Shown here in pieces: positions 1 through 45,840 of a stretch of DNA of 64,000 bases (position 1 is its first letter; each line of letters starts with the position of its first letter). This stretch comes from Candidatus Bathyarchaeia archaeon. GTDB lineage: Archaea; Thermoproteota; Bathyarchaeia; Bathyarchaeales; Bathycorpusculaceae. The notes beneath the pieces were generated by a model. The model made no database searches, was not told where the DNA came from, and was given only the letters and a program-made list of their open reading frames with translations. Made by a program: the position numbers and the translations under genes. The stretch spans positions 43,717 through 107,716 of the forward strand of contig JBEKWR010000003.1 of NCBI GenBank assembly GCA_049512935.1. Direction: 5' to 3'.

Positions 1-22
1 CGTAATTCCCGCAAGTACTCAC

Positions 23-661
23 GTGGTTCCTTCTCCGTTTTTTGTAATCAATTTTCTTGTACATTATGGGGTGGGATGGTACTTTCTGGTTGCAACAGTT
101 TTCTCCTTGATTTTGGTTCTGTCGCTTAAAAATTATTTTTCTAAAGTAATTATTGTTGATTTAGTATGCGTGGCGACAATTGCTTTTATTTTAAGCGTTA
201 ATGTTGTTATGGGCGCAGTTTTCAAGCTTAATGTGCCATATTTTAGCGCCATTAAATATGATTACCAAGCTTTGCCATTTCTTGTTTTATTAGTAGCGTC
301 GTTAACAACAAAGAGCCTCGCAGCGTTTAGAGCAGCAAAATCAACTGTGCATCTGAAAAAACTTATGTTTTATTTGGCTGCTATAGCAGCGGTGATACTG
401 CTTGCTGCATCGTTGATTTCAAGCATGTTTTACACAAATGCGGTTTCCACACTCAGTTACCTGCAGTACAGAGTGGAGCCGCAAGTTAATTACGGATATG
501 CACTCTCGACCCCTAACCCGTTAACGGCTAGCAGCCCGTTAATGGCGCTTCAATATTTGGGCTTCGCAGTTGCGTTATCTGGACTTTTGTTTGGACTATT
601 TTGCGTGACTAGGCATAAGATTCGGTGGTTATTCAAGCGAGAAAACGCTCAAAAGGCTTAA
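23..661 (+). CDS. C-terminal part of a multi-pass membrane protein, possibly ArnT/PMT-like glycosyltransferase; probably starts before the window
   Basis: Several hydrophobic helices; ORF begins at window edge; no diagnostic motif visible. Confidence 0.45.
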   Translation: MVPSPFFVINFLVHYGVGWYFLVATVFSLILVLSLKNYFSKVIIVDLVCVATIAFILSVNVVMGAVFKLNVPYFSAIKYDYQALPFLVLLVASLTTKSLAAFRAAKSTVHLKKLMFYLAAIAAVILLAASLISSMFYTNAVSTLSYLQYRVEPQVNYGYALSTPNPLTASSPLMALQYLGFAVALSGLLFGLFCVTRHKIRWLFKRENAQKA

Positions 662-794: not shown

Positions 795-826
795 TGAAGC
801 TGGGGGGAATGGGAATTGAACCCATA
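795..826 (-). repeat. Degenerate copy of tRNA-Cys 3' end (att-like scar)
   Basis: tgaagctggggggaatgggaattgaacccata vs tRNA tggagctggggatgggaattgaacccata: one substitution plus 3 inserted nt. Confidence 0.7.
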
Positions 827-844
827 ACCGTCAAGGATGCGAGT

Positions 845-1240
845 CTATTTAATGTCGTCTAACGTGGAAACGTTTGCCACTGTTGTTATTTTTTTGATTA
901 GCCGCAGGTCTTCCGTTATCAGTTTTAGTTCTTTTGCCTTAGCAAAATAAACGTATGAAGCGTCATAAAAAGTAATTTTTAGCTTGATTGCAGTATCTAA
1001 TATTTCCTCTTCGCTGTCGGTTATTTCTATTACATTCATTATGTTTAAGGTGTGCTTGATTGACTTTGCCAGCATTTTTGCTTCTTGCTCTGAAACCTTT
1101 GCTTGTAAGGCATAATCTTTCCATATGATGTTTCCCAGTTCGTATCTCGCTAGTTCTAATGTGTAGTTTCCAGTCAAAAAATCAATTTTGTTTTCTTTAA
1201 TTGCTCTAAATATGGCTGATGAATCAAAAAGACACTTCAT
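845..1240 (-). CDS. vapC: PIN-domain toxin (VapC-like)
   Basis: N-terminal LFDSSA motif, later E, and TFYDASY...LITED acidic tetrad; overlaps the upstream small gene by 4 nt. Confidence 0.85.
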   Translation of the reverse strand: MKCLFDSSAIFRAIKENKIDFLTGNYTLELARYELGNIIWKDYALQAKVSEQEAKMLAKSIKHTLNIMNVIEITDSEEEILDTAIKLKITFYDASYVYFAKAKELKLITEDLRLIKKITTVANVSTLDDIK

Positions 1241-1479
1241 CGGCTATCACGGTCTTCTCTTATGCTTTTCACTACATCTTCAACGCTGATTTTCTCAAGT
1301 ATCGGCTTTAGCCTCTCTATCTCTTCTTTTAGCTCTTCTACCTCTCTTTTTTTCACTTCATCTTCAAGGGCTTTTCGCAGAATCTTAGACGGCTTGATTT
1401 TGAACTTCTGAATTTTTTCTTTGAGTTGCTTGGGGATTTTTGTAGAAACTGTACATTGCTGCACCATTATTCTCACCAC
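1237..1479 (-). CDS. Ribbon-helix-helix antitoxin (VapB-like)
   Basis: 80 aa, TVSTKIP beta strand then helices, ends VVKSIREDRDSR as in archaeal VapB; coupled to PIN gene. Confidence 0.75.
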   Translation of the reverse strand: MVRIMVQQCTVSTKIPKQLKEKIQKFKIKPSKILRKALEDEVKKREVEELKEEIERLKPILEKISVEDVVKSIREDRDSR

Positions 1480-1542
1480 AAATTACTACTTTAAAGTAAG
1501 ATAAAACAGTTTCCGTAATATGCATAGAAAAAAAGTAACGTA

Positions 1543-1565
1543 TGGAGCTGGGGATGGGAATTGAA
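1543..1565 (-). repeat. 23-bp exact copy of tRNA-Cys 3' end (att-like)
   Basis: tggagctggggatgggaattgaa identical to 3069-3091. Confidence 0.85.
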
Positions 1566-1569
1566 ACAG

Positions 1570-1685
1570 GTTTTTTTATGCCTTCTATAGATTAGCAAAC
1601 CCGCGCTTATGCCAATAACTAATGCCGCCGTTAAAGCAATAGCCGTGATTACTGGAGTTAAAACTAGTTTGGCTAACGGGCGCAA
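1570..1685 (-). pseudogene. Fragment encoding a C-terminal membrane anchor of a surface protein
   Basis: TPVITAIALTAALVIGISAGLLIYRRHKK is a hydrophobic helix plus basic tail; reading frame runs into the att repeat; no upstream body. Confidence 0.4.
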
Positions 1686-2030
1686 GATGCACGATTATTT
1701 TTATTTAACCGCTTGCATTAGAGCATGCTGCCTGTGAAGATAAACACGTCAGTCGGAGAAAGGATTGGTAGTCCTATCGATGATGTCAGTTAACGAATTC
1801 TGAGGCACACGAAAACAATAAACAAAGAGCGCCTTGACTTGATCAGCAATTCACAGAAAATTGAAAGCCGAATGAATCAGATTCTCTGTGAGAAACTCGG
1901 TTAAGAATGTTGTATAAACTGGTAATGCCATGGATGGTCCAATCCTCGAATTCTCTTAATAAATGTCTCAGAAGTGCATTCCCCTAATATGCTGTCTAAG
2001 TTAGAGTTGAAACTCGATGTTTGCAGACGT

Positions 2031-2075
2031 TGGAGCTGGGGATGGGAATTGAACCCATATATAACAGCTCTGCAG
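2031..2075 (-). repeat. 45-bp exact copy of tRNA-Cys 3' half (attR-like)
   Basis: Identical to 3069-3113; begins at the anticodon loop. Confidence 0.95.
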
Positions 2076-2142
2076 ACGCTACAATAAAACAAGAGAGATT
2101 AGCATATACGCAGGTGTTAACAACAAATATCCCAGAGCTCGG

Positions 2143-2628
2143 ATGAACATGAAACCCGTACGGCAAGTTTATCTTGATACAAATATTTACTGTCGCCCGC
2201 TGGATGATCAAAAAGATAGACGCATCAATGCCGAAACCCAAGCCTTGCTGAAAATTGTTGATGCGAATGAAAAAGGAGAAATAGCGATAATAAGCTCGGA
2301 ATATGTGAAGTTTGAAATCGAGAAAGTAAAATACCCGCTAAAAAGGAAAAATATCCGAGGCTTCGAGAAAATCCTAAGCAAAGCCAACGTAACTAGCAGT
2401 AAAAGACTAATCACACTAGCCAAAGAAATCAACGCGAAATGCAACCTCAATTCCTTAGACGCCCTCCACTTGGCAGCAGCCTGCACAGGCAAAGCAAATT
2501 TTTTTCTAACCTGCGATGATGAAATTTTAAACGACAGAAATTGTATTGAAACATTAGTGGCAAATAAAGGGTATGAGTTAAAAGTTAGGAATCCAATAAA
2601 TTATATAAGAGAACATGAGGAAGAGTGA
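2143..2628 (+). CDS. PIN-domain protein (toxin-like)
   Basis: VYLDTNIYCRPLDD, E, LDALHLAAA, FLTCDD PIN motifs. Confidence 0.85.
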   Translation: MNMKPVRQVYLDTNIYCRPLDDQKDRRINAETQALLKIVDANEKGEIAIISSEYVKFEIEKVKYPLKRKNIRGFEKILSKANVTSSKRLITLAKEINAKCNLNSLDALHLAAACTGKANFFLTCDDEILNDRNCIETLVANKGYELKVRNPINYIREHEEE

Positions 2629-2857
2629 CATAAGAATGACTACGTCGCATATAGCCACTGTGGAAGTCCCCTTTGAAGCCCTAGCCAAAGAGCTTGGAAC
2701 AAAAAGAGCAATAGAGTTCATCAGCGAAATAAAAGAGTGCTATGGCGACTCTGTTGTTGAATTAAGAAAAGCCACCGAAACACTTACCATTGAACAAATA
2801 GAAGAAGAAATAAAAAAATCTAAAAAAGCAAAAATCGATAATTTTGAAAAAGAGTAA
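2615..2857 (+). CDS. Putative antitoxin downstream of the PIN gene
   Basis: 80 aa, overlaps PIN stop; EALAKELG..AIEFI...YGD pattern of small PIN partners. Confidence 0.6.
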   Translation: MRKSDIRMTTSHIATVEVPFEALAKELGTKRAIEFISEIKECYGDSVVELRKATETLTIEQIEEEIKKSKKAKIDNFEKE

Positions 2858-3068
2858 CTTACCACTTTAAATTTTGTTGTTAGTAGTCAAGAAATTTTTA
2901 GCGAATTTCTGACCTCTTACTTCCAATTTCCTGCCCTAAAAACGCTCTGTACAAATAAAATTTTAATTGCTTTATTATTTATGTTCAATGAAGCATTCCT
3001 CAGCAAAACGTTTGTCACGCAAAAAATGAAAGCTGCCCAAAGAGTTTGAAGCTCCAAACTTTATGCAG

Positions 3069-3144
3069 TGGAGCTGGGGATGGGAATTGAACCCATATAT
3101 AACAGCTCTGCAGGCTGTCGCCTGAACCATTCGGCCACCCCAGC
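3069..3144 (-). tRNA. tRNA-Cys(GCA), CCA encoded, no intron
   Basis: Acceptor GCTGGGG/CCCCAGC, discriminator T, anticodon arm ACAGC-CTGCAGA-GCTGT, T arm ATGGG-TTCAATT-CCCAT. Confidence 0.97.
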
Positions 3145-3236: not shown

Positions 3237-3599
3237 CTATTTCTTGAACGCTAACCCTGAGAAGAGCGCCACCATCTTTTCTCCGCTCTTCACCGTGACC
3301 TGGTAGAGACCCGTCGTTTTTCCGTCGGAAACCCGCGTTGCCTCCGCCACTAAAACGTCGCCTTCAACCGACGGTCTCAAGTAGTTGATGCTTACCTGTA
3401 CCGCGACTGCGACGTTGTCGCCGTAGTTGCATGCGTGTGCGAAGGCGTAGTCCGCCAGCGAGAAGACTGCGCCGCCGTGCGTGAAGCCAAGCGCGTTGGT
3501 GTGGTTTTTCTCAACTTTCATGCATACCCGTGCGTAGCCGTCTCTGGATTCTTCAAGGTGAATGCCGAGTGCTTCTGCAAAATGGTCTTTTCCCTTCAT
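3237..3599 (-). CDS. paaI: PaaI-family hotdog thioesterase
   Basis: HTNALGFTHGGAVFSLAD motif; lies beside paaK/ior genes. Confidence 0.85.
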   Translation of the reverse strand: MKGKDHFAEALGIHLEESRDGYARVCMKVEKNHTNALGFTHGGAVFSLADYAFAHACNYGDNVAVAVQVSINYLRPSVEGDVLVAEATRVSDGKTTGLYQVTVKSGEKMVALFSGLAFKK

Positions 3600-3955
3600 G
3601 CCTGTGCGCCCATGAACCGTGCATATAGCGCGTTACTCTAAATAAAACTAGCTGTGCACACGGCGGCTGCCTCCCTGTTCCCAGACGTGCCTATCCAAGA
3701 AAAACGCGCTTGGACGCCTGTATTTGGGTCCTGCAGATGCGCCCAAAAGGCGTTTTGTGCAGAATTGCCCGTTTTTCCTTGAAGAGTCAGCTGCAAAAAA
3801 CCATGAATTAAGCCCTAAAGCTAAAAAGCAGTCTGAAACAAGCCCTGATTGTACGAGAAAGTGGAGGGAAACAGGTATCAATGGGTTTATACCTGAAAAA
3901 TTGGCTGAAAGTTTGTTTTTCGCGTCGGAGAACACGGATTTGATCTGCTTGGTTT

Positions 3956-3985
3956 AGGCTCTAAACCAAAAAAGCAACATGAATC
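3956..3985 (-). repeat. Dispersed intergenic element, copy 1
   Basis: 25/30 identity to the reverse complement of the 8504-8540 copy; core GCTTTTTTGGTTTAG. Confidence 0.55.
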
Positions 3986-4186
3986 AAGCCCTGACCTACC
4001 AGATAGGGAGGGGGGAGGGGGTCTAGTATTTGTGACCAAAAACCAACACAAAAAAGACGTATGTTGACTCTCAGCTTAATTAAACCCATTATTGCGACCC
4101 TATAGGGTAGGCTACTATTTGTGACAAAATTCCATCACAAAAAGCGCTTCAACCACCGGCATCCTACGACAAAACCGCAGCCCAAA

Positions 4187-38145: not shown

Positions 38146-40110
38146 CTAACTCCAAGTTTTCTGGGTTTCACCCTCGTTTTCCACCTTCTTTGTCAACGCC
38201 AGATTCAGCTCCGCAATCGTGTCCCTAAGTTCAATGGCGCGTTCGAAGTCAAGTTTCTCGGCGGCTTTCCTCATCTGCGCGTCAAGCTCAATTATCTGGC
38301 GCTGAATGTCTGACTTCGGCAGGTGCTTTACACCCTTAATCTTGCCCTCCTTAAGCGACACGCTCTTCACTATCGTCTTAGGCGTGATGCCGTGGATTTG
38401 GTTGTAGCGTTTCTGGAAGGCGCGCCTGTAATTCGTAATTTCCATCGCCCGCTTGATCGACGCTGTCTCCACGTCGGCGTAAAGGAAGACTTTGCCGTTG
38501 ACGTTTCTTGCTGCTCGCCCGATGGTTTGGATGAGGCTTCGCTCGTCCCGCAGAAAACCCTCCTTGTCAGCGTCCAAAATGAAGATGGTGGCGACCTCTG
38601 GGATGTCTAAGCCTTCACGCAGCAGGTTTATGCCTACTAAAATGTCGAAGTCGCCCACGCGCAGTTGCCGCACAAGTTCTATGCGGTCTAAGCTTTCGAT
38701 GTCTGAGTGCATGTATCTTACGCGGAAGCCTTCTTTGACAAGGTAATCCGCAAGGTCTTCAGCCATCCGTTTCGTAAGCGTCGTGATTAGGATGCGGTCG
38801 CCGCGCTCGATGGTTTTCTTAGCTTCAGCCATCAGGTGCTGCATCTGCCCAGCGATCGGGTGAAGCTCCACTTCAGGGTCTAAAAGACCCGTTGGACGCG
38901 TGATGAGTTCGACGGGTGGGCCGCTCTTTTCCAGCTCGTACTCGGCTGGGGTCGCGGAGGCGAAGAGGACTTTGCCCATTTTTCCCTCAAACTCCTCAAA
39001 CCTTAAGGGTCTGTTGTCGAGGGCGCTGGGAAGTCGGAAGCCGAAGTCTACGAGGTTCTTTTTTCTTGAGTAGTCACCGTTGTACATCGCGTGTGCCTGC
39101 GGAATCGTCTGGTGGCTCTCGTCGATGATGAGCAGGTAATCTTTGGGGAAGTAATCCATCAGTGTGAACGGCGGCTCGCCTGGTCTGCGCCCGTCAAAGT
39201 GCCTGCTGTAGTTCTCCATGCCTGCGCAGAAGCCGATTTCCCGTATCATCTCCAAATCGTAGTTTGTCCGTTGCTTTAGCCTTTGAGCCTCAAGCGGCGG
39301 CAGATCGGGAAGCCTCTGCTCTAACTCCTGCTTGATATGCTCAAGCGCGAGTGCATGCTTCTCTTCGGGAACAACGTACTGGCGTGCAGGGTAAAGAGTA
39401 AGCTTGTCAACTGTGACTTTGACGTCGCCTGTTATGTGGTTGACTTCTTTAAGTTTGCCAACCGTGTTTGCGTCGAGTTCAACCCGTAAAATATCGTTCT
39501 CGTAGGAGGGCACGATGTCCACTGAGTTGCCTCGCACGCGGAACCTGCCAGGCTCAAGCACCATGTCACATCGTTCGTACTGCATGTCAACCAGCGCATG
39601 GATCAGGTCTTGCCTTGAAATTTGCTTTCCAACCGCCAAGTCCAGCGCCATTTTTCTGAAGTCGTCCGGGTTTCCAAGGCTGTAGATGCAGCTTATGCTG
39701 GCGACTATTATGGTGTCGTTTCGGCTGACCAGGCTGGAGACAGCGTGCATACGCATCTTCTCGATTTCCTCGTTCACGTCAGAGTCTTTTTCAATGTACA
39801 TGTCCTGCGCTGGCAAGTACGATTCAGGCTGATAGAAATCGTAGAAGCTGATGAAGTATTCAACGCGGTTGTTCGGGAAGTAGGATTTCAACTCGGCATA
39901 GAGCTGCGCTGCCAAAATCTTGTTGTGCGAGATTATCAGGGTTGGCTTTTGCAGGCGGTTGATCACGTTAGCCATGACAAACGTCTTTCCTGAACCAGTC
40001 AAGCCCAGAAGCGTCTGCTTATCCTTCGTTGCGAAGTTGCTTACGAGTTGGTCGACGGCTTTTTCCTGACCGGGAGAAATCTTAAAAGGCGCATTTAGCT
40101 CGAACTGCAT
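38146..40110 (-). CDS. uvrB: Excinuclease ABC subunit B
   Basis: GLTGSGKT, YDFYQPE, DESH, LIQTIGRAARN, C-terminal UVR; ATG 40110 preferred. Confidence 0.97.
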   Translation of the reverse strand: MQFELNAPFKISPGQEKAVDQLVSNFATKDKQTLLGLTGSGKTFVMANVINRLQKPTLIISHNKILAAQLYAELKSYFPNNRVEYFISFYDFYQPESYLPAQDMYIEKDSDVNEEIEKMRMHAVSSLVSRNDTIIVASISCIYSLGNPDDFRKMALDLAVGKQISRQDLIHALVDMQYERCDMVLEPGRFRVRGNSVDIVPSYENDILRVELDANTVGKLKEVNHITGDVKVTVDKLTLYPARQYVVPEEKHALALEHIKQELEQRLPDLPPLEAQRLKQRTNYDLEMIREIGFCAGMENYSRHFDGRRPGEPPFTLMDYFPKDYLLIIDESHQTIPQAHAMYNGDYSRKKNLVDFGFRLPSALDNRPLRFEEFEGKMGKVLFASATPAEYELEKSGPPVELITRPTGLLDPEVELHPIAGQMQHLMAEAKKTIERGDRILITTLTKRMAEDLADYLVKEGFRVRYMHSDIESLDRIELVRQLRVGDFDILVGINLLREGLDIPEVATIFILDADKEGFLRDERSLIQTIGRAARNVNGKVFLYADVETASIKRAMEITNYRRAFQKRYNQIHGITPKTIVKSVSLKEGKIKGVKHLPKSDIQRQIIELDAQMRKAAEKLDFERAIELRDTIAELNLALTKKVENEGETQKTWS

Positions 40111-43114: not shown

Positions 43115-44623
43115 TCACATTCCCATTTTGAGCCGTCGATACGTCGTGTAATCCACGTACTCTATGAACGGGTTCTCAGCTTGGAATTTAACATTGACCT
43201 TCTGGTGCTTTCGCTTGTCGATAAGCTGGCTTGTGGTTCTAAGCAGGTACGCGTCGCTTCCAGCGCCTGAACCGTAGCTGCCGACCAAGATAAGTTCTTC
43301 AGGCTTTGCAACGTCAAGCACCGACGCTAAACCCACGGGCACGCAGCCGGAGTAGGTGTTGCCGAACTTGTTAATCTGAAGCGCGGGCAAGTACTGCTCT
43401 TCCTTAAACCCAAGCTCCTTAGCCATCCTGACTGGGAACACTGGGTTAGGCTGATGAGCAACGAAGTAGGCTAAGTCGCTTGCTTTAAGGTTGAAACGCT
43501 CCATAAGCTTGCAGGTTGCCTTGCGAACATGCTTAAAATACGCGGGGTCACCAGTGAATCTTCCGCCATGACTCGGGAACTGTTCGCCGTCTCTGCGCCA
43601 GAAATCAGGCGTGTCAGACGTGCAGCTGTACCATCCCTCCACCTGAGCGATCACGTCGTTTTTCCCGAAAATGAAGGCGGCGCCGCCGTAGCCGACAAAC
43701 GTGTCCAGTTCGCCGCCTGGGCAGCCTCTGGGCGCAGCTTGCGCGTTATCCGCGCCGATAGCCATGGCGTATTCTATGCCCGAGCGTGGGTAACTAACAA
43801 GGGAACAGGCGTCCTTATACATGCTTGTAGCCGCCTTGCAGGCAAACTCGGTGTCGACCGCGTCGACGCCTTGGACGTCGCCGTCTTCTTCGCCGAGCTT
43901 AAGAACCTGAGCTACCTTCGCCGCGATAGGCTTAACTGAGTACGGGTTGGATTCTGAGCCGACGTAGACTTTTCCGATCAGTTTGCTGTCGACGCCTGAG
44001 TGGACCAGCGCCATTTTTCCAGCCTCCACCGACGCGGTCACTGAGTCTTCGTCGAGGAAGGGGACGGCTCGCTCCAGCTCGGCTTCTTTTATTCTGAACC
44101 TTGAAATGTAAACGCCATAGCCCACGACTCCTGGCACGTCGTACTCCTTGGTGGGTGCCACAACCTTGTACTCTTGATGCGGGTAATACTCGTCGGCTAA
44201 AGTGAAAGCCAAGGAGATCGTTGGGATAACATCGCTTTTGCTCACGGAGTAGCGCCTGCGGAAGCGGGGAACAACCTCTCTTCCCTCAAGGTTCGACAAG
44301 TCAACCTCTTTGCCGTCGCAGATTAACTGGTCAGTCAGCCTTGCTGGCACGCGGATTTTGCCGTCGTGAAAAGAAACAATCCCGTAAACGAAGTTCGAGA
44401 GCTTCATGAACTTGTTGGTGGGTTCGTTGACGAAGGTGCATAACTCCAGTTTTCCCTTGTCATAAAACAGGTCGATGCTGTCCATTTTTCCGTAGCTTTT
44501 TCTGCCGCAGTTGCTGCAGTAATCGCGGACTTCAAAGTATTCTTTGCCGCAGCATTGGCATCGGCTTGCCCGTAACCTGTCACCTAAATAAGAAACCCGC
44601 CGCTCTATCGGTTCACTGCTCAA
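43115..44623 (-). CDS. DUF35 (zinc ribbon-OB) fused to HMG-CoA synthase
   Basis: CQCC..CSNC ribbon and OB fold, then GSESNPY, EFACKAAT, VAHQPN, GSYGSGAGSDA. Confidence 0.9.
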   Translation of the reverse strand: MSSEPIERRVSYLGDRLRASRCQCCGKEYFEVRDYCSNCGRKSYGKMDSIDLFYDKGKLELCTFVNEPTNKFMKLSNFVYGIVSFHDGKIRVPARLTDQLICDGKEVDLSNLEGREVVPRFRRRYSVSKSDVIPTISLAFTLADEYYPHQEYKVVAPTKEYDVPGVVGYGVYISRFRIKEAELERAVPFLDEDSVTASVEAGKMALVHSGVDSKLIGKVYVGSESNPYSVKPIAAKVAQVLKLGEEDGDVQGVDAVDTEFACKAATSMYKDACSLVSYPRSGIEYAMAIGADNAQAAPRGCPGGELDTFVGYGGAAFIFGKNDVIAQVEGWYSCTSDTPDFWRRDGEQFPSHGGRFTGDPAYFKHVRKATCKLMERFNLKASDLAYFVAHQPNPVFPVRMAKELGFKEEQYLPALQINKFGNTYSGCVPVGLASVLDVAKPEELILVGSYGSGAGSDAYLLRTTSQLIDKRKHQKVNVKFQAENPFIEYVDYTTYRRLKMGM

Positions 44624-45840
44624 TCTTTCCTCTCTCCTAAAATAGTGACGTAAGCCTTAGTTCCGAAGCCTTCAAACTCCGAAACGCAGCCGCTCTTCGG
44701 TAAGCCGCCGTCAACGTTGACTTGACGCGTCCCAGCTTGCCCTTTCAGTTGGCGGTAAATCTCAAAAATCTGAGCCCCGCCAGTGGCGCCAAACGGGTTC
44801 CCATCCGCTTTTAACCCGCCGTCAGTGTTAACGTAAAGTTGCCTACCGTTCACTTCATAGAAGTGCTTGTTGCCCAGGTAGCTTTCGTAAATGCTTTTCC
44901 AAGCCTCTCCAGGCTTGCAGAAGCCCAAGTCCTCAAGGGAAACAAGCTCCATCACTGTTGACTGATCGTTTATTTCGATGACTTGAATGTCAGACAGGGC
45001 GGTCTTCGCCATCTGCGCGGCGTTCTTCATCGCGATTTCAGCCGCGACAAAACGAGACAGGTCCTCCCTTGCAGTGTAGTTCAGATAGTCAGTTGCTGAA
45101 GTGCAGGCGAGAACGTGAACTGGGCTGTCGCACAGCTTTTTGGCTGCCGCCTCACTCATGAGAACCAACGCGGAAGCGCCGTCAGAAATCGGGGCGAAAT
45201 CGAACATGCCCAAGGGCTTCTGCGCGGTTTTCCTCGCGTTTAGAACTTGCTGAACCGTGATTGCCCTCTGGTACTGCGCGTACTTGTTTTTGGTTGCGTT
45301 CGCGTGGTTCTTAACCGAAACCTGCGCCAAGGCAATGTTGAGTTTGTCAAGATTTTCGCCCGTTACATGATGCGCTTTAATGTAGGCTCTCAGCATCAAC
45401 TCATGGTTGGATTCAGGCGTGCCGCCTGCATAGTAACTCCATGGATCCTCCAGAAGCATGAGGTCGTCGCGTATTTTGTCCCAGCGATCCGTCATTTTTT
45501 CTATGCCGCCGACCAGAACGGTGTCGTAGACTCCAGCCTGAATCGCGTGGCAAGCCGTCAACAAGGCAGCGCTGAAAGATCGGGTTGTCTCCATGGGCAC
45601 ATGAAGCTCAGTGAGCTCCGAGAGAAAACCCTCTTCCAAACCCAGCTTGTTCGTGATTGGGAGAAAACAGTCTGACATGTAGCAGGCTTCAAGGTCTTTG
45701 CGTTCGATGCCGCACTCGTTTGAAGCGGCAAGCCAAGCTTCCTCAATGAGCTTCTCAGGTTCTTTGCCGTAGTGCTCCCCAAACTTGGTTCTGCCCACAG
45801 CAACTATGACCGGTCGGTTTTGCAAGACAAGACCTTCCAT
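44620..45840 (-). CDS. Thiolase-fold protein with degenerate catalytic motifs
   Basis: GRTKFG, GGIEKM, VKNH, PISDGA, EDLGF, GGLK..G.PFGATG; start ATG 45840 or TTG 45825. Confidence 0.88.
   Translation of the reverse strand: MEGLVLQNRPVIVAVGRTKFGEHYGKEPEKLIEEAWLAASNECGIERKDLEACYMSDCFLPITNKLGLEEGFLSELTELHVPMETTRSFSAALLTACHAIQAGVYDTVLVGGIEKMTDRWDKIRDDLMLLEDPWSYYAGGTPESNHELMLRAYIKAHHVTGENLDKLNIALAQVSVKNHANATKNKYAQYQRAITVQQVLNARKTAQKPLGMFDFAPISDGASALVLMSEAAAKKLCDSPVHVLACTSATDYLNYTAREDLSRFVAAEIAMKNAAQMAKTALSDIQVIEINDQSTVMELVSLEDLGFCKPGEAWKSIYESYLGNKHFYEVNGRQLYVNTDGGLKADGNPFGATGGAQIFEIYRQLKGQAGTRQVNVDGGLPKSGCVSEFEGFGTKAYVTILGERKD

Follow-up and report, generated by a model that had tools for sequence, protein, structure and literature searches.

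The locus described here raises the question of how small toxin-antitoxin (TA) operons that have no recombinase of their own came to be stacked behind a tRNA gene, and whether they arrived in this form or are what is left of larger islands. It lies at positions 795 to 3144 of a 64,000-nucleotide stretch (the window; C3:43717-107716) from contig C3 of G000, an archaeal metagenome-assembled genome of the Bathyarchaeia (2.30 Mb, 49 contigs), in which three units bounded by copies of the 3' part of a tRNA-Cys gene follow that gene. It is certain that recombination within the tRNA 3' part stacked these units, that the cassettes lack an integrase and that they move between genomes. As to how they move, the account we favour, at slightly less than even confidence, is that they are cassettes resembling the cis-mobilizable elements (CIMEs) of streptococci, captured by recombination in the tRNA 3' part and moved by an integrase acting in trans. 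The features of the locus, starting from the tRNA, are as follows.

3069-3144, minus strand: tRNA-Cys(GCA), the recombination target, with its 3' end at 3069 (ARAGORN; Rfam RF00005, 64.2 bits).
2858-3068: AT-rich spacer of 211 bp between the inner TA pair (TA2) and the tRNA 3' end.
2615-2857, plus strand: partner gene of TA2, a putative antitoxin of 80 amino acids (aa), recognised as a conserved neighbour of the toxin.
2143-2628, plus strand: TA2 toxin, a PIN domain protein of 161 aa that reads towards the tRNA (Pfam PIN).
2031-2075, minus strand: att copy 2, 45/45 identical to tRNA positions 32-76 (repeat search).
1568-2030: middle unit, a non-coding remnant of a larger unit.
1543-1567, minus strand: att copy 3, identical in 23/23 nt to tRNA positions 54-76 (T-loop through CCA end).
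1237-1479, minus strand: antitoxin of the outer TA pair (TA1), VapB-like, 80 aa (NCBIfam NF050799).
845-1240, minus strand: TA1 toxin, VapC/PIN, 131 aa (PDB and Pfam matches).
798-842, minus strand: att copy 4, degenerate, with an 18-nt exact core ATGGGAATTGAACCCATA.
C3:42047-42078, about 1.65 kb upstream of window position 1: att copy 5, 32 nt, 90.6% identical.

The initial annotation had reported that the tRNA-Cys 3' end recurs three times, twice exactly and once in degenerate form, and this was reproduced, with a fifth copy lying outside the window. All three copies in the window were direct repeats of the 3' part of the tRNA, which itself is intact, and a search with the 25-mer of the tRNA end at up to 3 mismatches gave 3 matches against 0 in 100 shuffles. 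The repeat-bounded units beside an intact tRNA bear out the proposed serial recombination at its 3' part. The identity of att copy 2 began at the first base of the anticodon loop and its junction was orthologous in the relative G219, in which att copy 3 was degenerate. Blocks of identity started at tRNA positions 32 and 54 in G000 and at 22-33 and 49 in relatives; in other genomes the starting position of the copy distal to TA1 was 33, 28 or 22. Att copy 4 was shortened in comparison with the 50-58-nt copy that follows TA1 in G219, G220 and G222. Split or alternative tRNA 3' halves were rejected as an explanation of the copies, which start at 32 or 54 and not at 37/38, beside an intact tRNA gene.

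The inner, middle and outer units measured 993 bp (2076-3068), 463 bp (1568-2030) and approximately 700 bp (829/843-1542), close to the 990, 465 and 715 bp first estimated, and the outer and inner units each held one of the two predicted two-gene PIN modules. The TA1 toxin matched Pyrobaculum PIN proteins in PDB, PAE2754 (1v8p, E 6e-11) and PAE0151 (2fe1, E 5e-7), and Pfam PIN at E 1e-3, and a search of genome contigs showed 39 related loci. Its gene overlaps that of the antitoxin by 4 nt and its stop lies about 17 bp from the core of att copy 4, in line with the 20 bp originally given. The TA1 antitoxin matched the Sulfolobus-type VapB family NF050799 under the cut-off (E 2.6e-9, profile positions 2-69 of 69) and CcdA weakly, and was 95% identical in aa sequence in G219. 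TA1 is accordingly predicted to be a type II VapBC module, having a PIN toxin and a small, adjacent and overlapping antitoxin gene. The TA2 toxin matched Pfam PIN at 31.2 bits (E 3.7e-7; cut-off 23.6 bits) and was patchily distributed, with homologues (54-60% aa identity) in 7 out of 201 genomes from the order. Its partner, the true start of which is likely the ATG at 2636 judging from homologues, had no family match in profile searches; it lies directly downstream of the toxin as a gene of 65-73 aa in all 7 related loci examined (L022-L028, six genomes) and as one of 73 aa in G219. TA2 would likewise be a type II VapBC module, with a conserved partner of no assigned family. Each cassette seems to have a promoter region of its own. 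No match to TA1 or TA2 was found on viral contigs, homologues of TA2 in metagenome contigs had no tRNA or repeat copy nearby, and the middle unit had no convincing gene.

The studied 2.3 kb forms the tRNA-proximal part of a variable stack of about 10 kb (C3:36.6-46.8 kb), the conserved left flank of which was placed at approximately C3:36578 by comparison with G003 and G012. Independent ENA and JGI contigs spanning the array reproduced it at 99.97-100% identity, which excludes an assembly artefact; two other contigs, one from Logan and a short one from ENA, extended only as far as tRNA-Cys. The public runs holding the stretch were peat and wetland metagenomes, and the records of close relatives of G000 are titled Candidatus Bathyarchaeota or Bathyarchaeia, with peat, bog and soil as sources.

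As first stated, no integrase was present. Profile searches for PF00589, PF16795 and PF00239 across the 10-kb variable region gave neither an integrase nor a fragment, and tblastn with integrases of relatives returned nothing from this region, including no integrase remnant in the spacer at 2858-3068. Open reading frames crossing the repeat copies had no family matches, no Int(N)/Int(C) halves were seen at the borders, and a split SSV-type integrase at the unit borders was rejected given that PF16795 and PF00589 gave no signal. A search of the whole G000 genome, as had been suggested, showed no serine recombinase and a single intact tyrosine recombinase, which lies elsewhere (C2:123052-124587, 511 aa) and is tied to tRNA-Gln. 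The reading frame of this recombinase holds a 24-nt copy of the tRNA-Gln 3' end (124427-124450), tRNA-Gln(CTG) lies 4.6 kb from that copy, and winged helix-turn-helix and plasmid-like genes surround the recombinase gene, which may belong to an element whose att site lies within int.

Comparison with G219 showed that the cassettes have been exchanged. The two genomes have in common the order TA2, repeat, middle part, repeat, TA1, repeat, and in G219 a further unit of 1.4 kb lies between TA2 and the tRNA. Nucleotide identity between G000 and G219 differed from segment to segment.

iorA and paaI: 76.4%, with 53% at third codon positions.
TA1 toxin: 97.5%, with 94% at third codon positions.
TA1 antitoxin: 92.9%, with 86% at third codon positions.
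382 non-coding nt beside TA1: 93.5%.
TA2 partner: 84.8%, with 64% at third codon positions.

In G219, TA1 is without an integrase too and has the same inner boundary as in G000. Since TA1 is 93-97% identical and the core genes are 76% identical with saturated third positions, it was the integrase-less form itself that was transferred. Integrase-less segments were evidently swapped between the lineages after speciation and at differing times. The proposed fall of repeat fidelity with distance from the tRNA held in G000 and G220 but does not record a simple order of arrival, as the tRNA-proximal TA2 diverged more than TA1 between G000 and G219.

The comparison of the locus across relatives that had been called for showed that content and unit order vary between genomes. 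G220 had the order tRNA, a 1.6-kb unit with integrase remnants, repeat, a third TA cassette (TA3), repeat, TA1, repeat, while TA1 was proximal to TA3 in G223 and G000, the opposite of G220. In at least 20 loci the homology of TA1 spanned only the segment from att3 to the toxin stop, with unrelated neighbours. These data bear on the explanation that each unit is the residue of its own integrase-bearing island, cut down in situ to the addictive core, and that the cassettes never moved. It is hard to reconcile with the transfer of an integrase-less TA1 between species and with the recurrence of the same minimal unit beside other neighbours and in another order. In addition, no TA unit held an integrase stub despite spacers of only 8-211 bp, in G127 and L049 TA units lay proximal to an integrase, intact or partial, and the integrase-bearing tRNA-Cys islands of relatives did not have these TA genes inside.

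Decay itself is evident at this locus. The halves of the middle unit matched G016 segments at 91% and 82.5% that are 2.26 kb apart in G016, the second of them ending exactly at an att copy after which further units follow; the middle unit clearly reads as a deletion derivative of a 2.7-kb unit of the G016 type. Its att3-proximal 295 nt were 93.5% identical to G219. The TA3 cassette, intact in G220, is reduced in G000 to a 63-aa PIN stub near att copy 5. In G219 and G220 the repeat after TA1 measures 50-58 nt, with approximately 85-110 nt of spacer in front of it; about 130 nt of both are gone in G000, which is why the toxin stop lies so close to the repeat there. Integrase stubs at tRNA ends (G003, G022 and G220; C27 and C21 in G000) show integrase genes being deleted, and Sulfolobus genomes have many decayed tRNA-linked remnants, some with vapBC (PMC3718332). 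The serial decay offered by the initial annotation as one alternative thus describes the middle unit, TA3 and att copy 4 and fails alone for TA1, which was transferred without an integrase. As a complete explanation, in-situ decay is largely refuted by these comparisons and we consider it improbable.

Candidates for the mover were found in the relatives. Among 20 loci examined from relatives (19 same-genus species), tRNA-Cys adjoined paaI-iorBA in 15, and the DNA 3' of tRNA-Cys was different in each of these 15. Intact PF00589 tyrosine integrases of 417-418 aa with an N-terminal zinc ribbon abutted the tRNA-Cys 3' end in G005 and G008, their genes ending about 25-40 bp from it. Integrase C-terminal stubs of 22-74 aa abutted tRNA-Cys in G003, G022 and G220, a 163-aa integrase fragment lay beside a repeat copy in G002, and G000 itself had fragments of the zinc-ribbon family on C21, C27 (abutting tRNA-Pro) and C16. 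Integrases, stubs and fragments at tRNA ends therefore indicate that the zinc-ribbon family uses these ends and that its genes decay. At tRNA-Leu in G127, only 35 bp separated the end of an intact 398-aa integrase from the distal repeat that bounds a TA2-type unit, with another integrase-less unit closer to the tRNA, and at L049 an integrase C-terminal domain abutted the repeat just distal to TA1; at both places the TA unit would have come in when the integrase element was already resident. The tRNA-Leu repeat copies beside TA2-type cassettes (L029, which is G127:C41, L022 and L023) have a conserved palindromic arm, TTTACTAGTAAA, adjoining the tRNA-derived part (at 1553-1600 and 2650-2700 in L029); the arm is a candidate integrase-binding motif.

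Under the favoured account, the stack would have been built by repeated Campbell-type recombination into the tRNA-Cys 3' part, each event restoring the tRNA and shifting the displaced copy of its 3' part outwards. A cassette would consist of a promoter region, two genes and a tRNA-derived arm with no recombinase, and would be exchanged between species as a discrete unit. The helper would most likely be a tRNA-Cys-specific tyrosine integrase of approximately 400-420 aa with an N-terminal zinc ribbon, acting in trans, which could cut out whatever lies between two repeat copies and insert it again, either at the tRNA itself or at any of the repeats. Cassettes would persist because a host pays for losing an addiction module, whereas the cargo beside them decays. 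Williams reportedly described, in 2002, the anticodon loop and the T-loop as the classical crossover sublocations of tyrosine integrases. An integrase in trans is favoured because the identity blocks start at the anticodon and T stem-loops, where one integrase family sits in relatives, and because integrases sometimes lie distal to a TA unit. We infer that an integrase rather than host recombination is the mover, and that addiction is the reason for retention.

The same layout was found throughout the genome. Of the 27 PIN genes of G000, 8 lay no more than 2 kb 3' of a tRNA, where 0.88 would be expected; in 5000 random placements the number never exceeded 5. At least 10 other tRNA genes (Met, Ala(GGC), Leu(GAG), Leu(CAG), Leu(UAA), Thr, Gly(TCC), Gly(GCC), Val(GAC) and Pro(CGG)) had 1-3 small units of 0.4-1.6 kb directly 3', nearly all of them TA-like pairs. 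The sites in G000 are as follows.

C1:48624-49458
C2:47186-48760
C4:15642-16476
C5:9453-10265
C12:7371-8235
C21:2508-3724
C23:22855-26743
C27:14060-14933
C28:9088-10345
C3:142709-145556

At nearly all of these tRNAs the unit was closed by a repeat of the tRNA 3' part; no closing repeat was found behind tRNA-Gly(GCC) on C28. Seven kinds of pair were present, DUF433/DUF5615, DUF2283/DUF4258, DUF2683/ParE, DUF5678/aspartyl protease, MazE/PIN, VapB/PIN and MNT/HEPN, and the spacers between TA units and tRNAs measured 8-211 bp. A paralogue of TA1, 72% identical, was located in the tRNA-Leu(UAA) stack. This tRNA (C3:145441-145556) has an insertion or intron upstream of the anticodon stem and is missed by ARAGORN with introns allowed; approximately 70 nt of it, part of the insertion included, are duplicated 852 bp downstream. 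At tRNA-Gly(CCC) on C4 (99874-101410) the unit holds a single 458-aa secreted repeat protein instead. For the ParE cassette at tRNA-Thr, homologues of 70-80% identity were found in other Bathyarchaeia, located directly 3' of other tRNAs and in most cases closed by a repeat of the local tRNA. Two protein genes had the same layout: a MazE/PIN_3 pair followed a TrpRS/TyrRS-type gene (C6:63192-64290; L144 1192-2290) with a gene-end duplicate of 98 nt at 89% identity, the differences being largely synonymous as judged by eye, and a MNT/HEPN-like pair followed the deoxyhypusine synthase gene (C32:5022-6627; L145 1022-2627) with a duplicate of at least 135 nt at 77-83%. Relatives did not have an equal density of tRNA-linked PIN genes, with at least 2 of 26 in G016, 1-2 of 7 in G014 and 0 of 18 within 1 kb in G003, counts that were judged against an incomplete tRNA list.

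Several of these results weigh against cassettes moved by an integrase in trans. With at least 12 different targets in G000, many helper specificities would be needed, and G000 has no integrase of the tRNA-Cys type. Homologous cassettes lie at different tRNAs in different genomes, which a fixed attP does not account for, and the two protein genes have the cassette layout with diverged duplicates. The identity blocks of integrase-bearing relatives were only 11-18 nt long (positions 60/61-76 in G005 and G016; 18 nt at tRNA-Leu in G127) compared with 23-58 nt for TA cassettes. A universal link of TA1 to tRNA-Cys repeats was rejected, as repeat copies of 23-55 nt flanked TA1 in only 8-9 of 22 close loci, and a clean repeat-to-repeat insertion or deletion between G000 and G219 was rejected because the spacers next to TA2 are unrelated, the one at 2858-3068 having no homology to its G219 counterpart. 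Strain-level polymorphism was rejected with an identical array on contigs encoding an identical PaaI protein. In assembled contigs no excised circle, empty site or strain-level polymorphism was seen, and as the excision joints were sought in Logan contigs, which break at repeats, the absence of joints carries no information and does not count as a negative. An empty tRNA-Cys site flanked by the same outer neighbour was not found in relatives.

Many of the same observations would be met by a mechanism without any recombinase, in which the tRNA fragment serves as a portable homology arm and host homologous recombination moves the cassettes. The cassette would loop out between repeats, or travel as a linear repeat-cassette-repeat molecule, and re-enter a conserved tRNA with the duplication regenerated, as a TA counterpart of the insertion with long target duplication of restriction-modification systems (PMC2853133), for which integrase-less tRNA-linked insertions are on record (PMC2853133). 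No integrase was found at any of the at least 12 cassette sites of G000, the distal copy of the TrpRS/TyrRS-type gene end looks like a foreign allele, the deoxyhypusine synthase gene shows the same layout, and the repeat lengths are long and variable (13-122 nt). The segment common to G000 and G219 has one boundary inside the middle unit and not at a repeat, and its distal part is the more recently exchanged, both of which fit segment replacement by homologous recombination. On the other hand, block starts fall into two clusters, one in the anticodon stem-loop (22-33) and one in the T stem-loop (48-54), and are not spread along the tRNA, integrases and their stubs lie exactly at these sites in relatives, arms of 77-89% identity with only 23-34 nt uninterrupted are poor substrates for homologous recombination, and recombination between direct repeats deletes or duplicates units and cannot reorder them. 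Recombinase-free movement is a serious rival, possible but on this balance rather unlikely.

Among described systems the closest match is with the CIMEs and microCIMEs of streptococci, products of site-specific accretion that have flanking att sites, lack integrase and transfer genes and stand in tandem at the 3' end of a target gene (PMC7563491). The resemblance extends to units stacked at a gene 3' end, tRNA genes included, without recombination or transfer genes, to gene-free micro-units (130-220 bp in streptococci, 463 bp here) and to the proposed mobilisation by an integrase-bearing neighbour. Unlike those elements, the present cassettes have an archaeal host with no known conjugative partner, their mobilisation is only proposed, and their cargo is one TA operon in 0.7-1.0 kb rather than 1.2-13 kb. 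CIMEs are always farthest from the target in streptococci, whereas TA units lie proximal to the integrase in G127 and L049, and in G000 the tRNA-proximal unit is itself without an integrase. Concerning CIME origin by deletion from an integrase-bearing element, deletion was found in the middle unit and no integrase trace in the TA units. A CIME-type tandem with an integrase-bearing element was not present in G000; G127 has an intact integrase in this arrangement, and L049 and G220 have remnants.

Tandem islands of tyrosine integrases are similar in that direct repeats of the tRNA 3' part bound the units, start at the anticodon or T-loop and enclose variable content, but the units here have no integrase of their own; at the same tRNA, G005 and G008 have one. 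Furuta, Abe and Kobayashi (2010) described bacterial restriction-modification complexes inserted with long target duplication (PMC2853133), in which likewise an addiction-type module stands between long direct duplications of variable length and other mobility genes are lacking; some published cases involve tRNA sequences, and a cycle of invasion, repeat amplification and release was proposed (PMC2853133). The type is defined by a target duplication of more than 30 bp without a mobility gene, both of which were observed at tRNA-Cys, and by an empty site in a related genome that aligns with both repeats. These differ from the present cassettes in being restriction-modification systems of bacteria, no archaeal case having survived that screen and no multi-cassette arrays being described, and the authors caution that tRNA-linked cases may be due to site-specific recombination (PMC2853133). 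Sulfolobus islandicus (PMC3718332) and Thaumarchaeota (PMC6563490) also show tRNA hot spots with several remnants, captured vapBC, re-use of sites and integrase decay. Their remnants, however, were recognised by integrase fragments (split SSV-type int) or by plasmid and virus genes (PMC3718332, PMC6563490), the smallest thaumarchaeal element (2.6 kb) keeps its integrase, unlike the units here (PMC6563490), Sulfolobus vapBC loci are reported to be flanked by insertion sequence (IS) remnants and not by tRNA repeats (PMC3718332), and units of TA genes only, exchanged between species, are not described in either work (PMC3718332, PMC6563490).

The initial annotation had offered, as its other alternative, an integron-like capture of cassettes in trans. 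Vibrio superintegrons consist of single-function cassettes of 0.5-1 kb between recombination sites, among which TA cassettes are frequent and are thought to stabilise the array, and their recombinase is not encoded by the cassettes. Capture in trans is supported in part, by the exchange and reordering of cassettes; a strict integron was rejected: neither IntI, attI nor attC was found, and no tyrosine recombinase lies near the array. A promoter Pc is likewise lacking, the sites are tRNA fragments and not folded attC, and the cassettes have apparent promoters of their own and stand in both orientations. Literature searches found no description of TA-only cassettes bounded by tRNA arms in archaea.

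The array is flanked by the following genes.

3237-3599, minus strand: paaI-type thioesterase, the conserved flank on the tRNA 5' side (Pfam 4HBT; 73-87% aa identity in 15 relatives).
2-661, plus strand: 3' part of a PMT_2 glycosyltransferase gene (460 aa whole; Pfam PMT_2, E 4e-20).

The PMT_2 gene belongs to the next outer unit, which ends at att copy 5; in L048 and L050 it is not present between TA1 and what remains of TA3. The rest of the stack holds MFS-type transporter-like, CorA-like, flippase, secreted protein, thioredoxin-like and PMT_2 glycosyltransferase genes along with the 63-aa PIN stub. Beyond paaI, window positions 3808-4143 contain direct repeats (3808-3848/3954-3994 and 4023-4054/4112-4143); summed contig depth there was 57-88 in 3 of 4 peat runs (6.5 in X5), with neighbours at 4-9, and many contigs continue from it into unlike sequence. 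The stretch appears to be a short element present in many copies across organisms. Two more tRNA-Cys(GCA) genes of G000, at C6:36095-36169 and 39655-39729, are 92% identical to each other and 3.56 kb apart; the pair has an unusual T-loop (GTGCAAATC), brackets glycosyltransferase-type genes and may represent island-borne or duplicated tRNA. Also on C6, a UPF0175 and PIN-like pair (44015-45052; L143 9515-10552) is enclosed by two 26-nt repeats (88% identical) resembling the T-arm of tRNA-Cys, without a tRNA in the vicinity, and a close homologue of its antitoxin adjoins TA1 in G222 (L082 14800-15132).

It is conceivable, if on present evidence doubtful, that TA operons act generally as minimal mobile elements with a portable arm taken from a conserved tRNA or protein-gene 3' end, stacking in an integron-like manner without a locus-encoded integrase and being reordered, exchanged and occasionally re-armed for another tRNA, in Bathyarchaeia and possibly more widely. 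TA operons are among the most horizontally mobile prokaryotic genes, yet they carry no transposase or integrase, and the movement of chromosomal copies is poorly understood. This locus offers a testable unit made of an operon and a tRNA-derived arm, sequence evidence for recent transfer between species and the zinc-ribbon integrases as candidate helpers. That one genome has the layout at 10 or more tRNAs and at two protein genes points to a general route rather than a single-site oddity. Integrase-less tRNA-linked 'islets' need not be dead remnants, which affects how islands are detected and counted in archaeal metagenome-assembled genomes.

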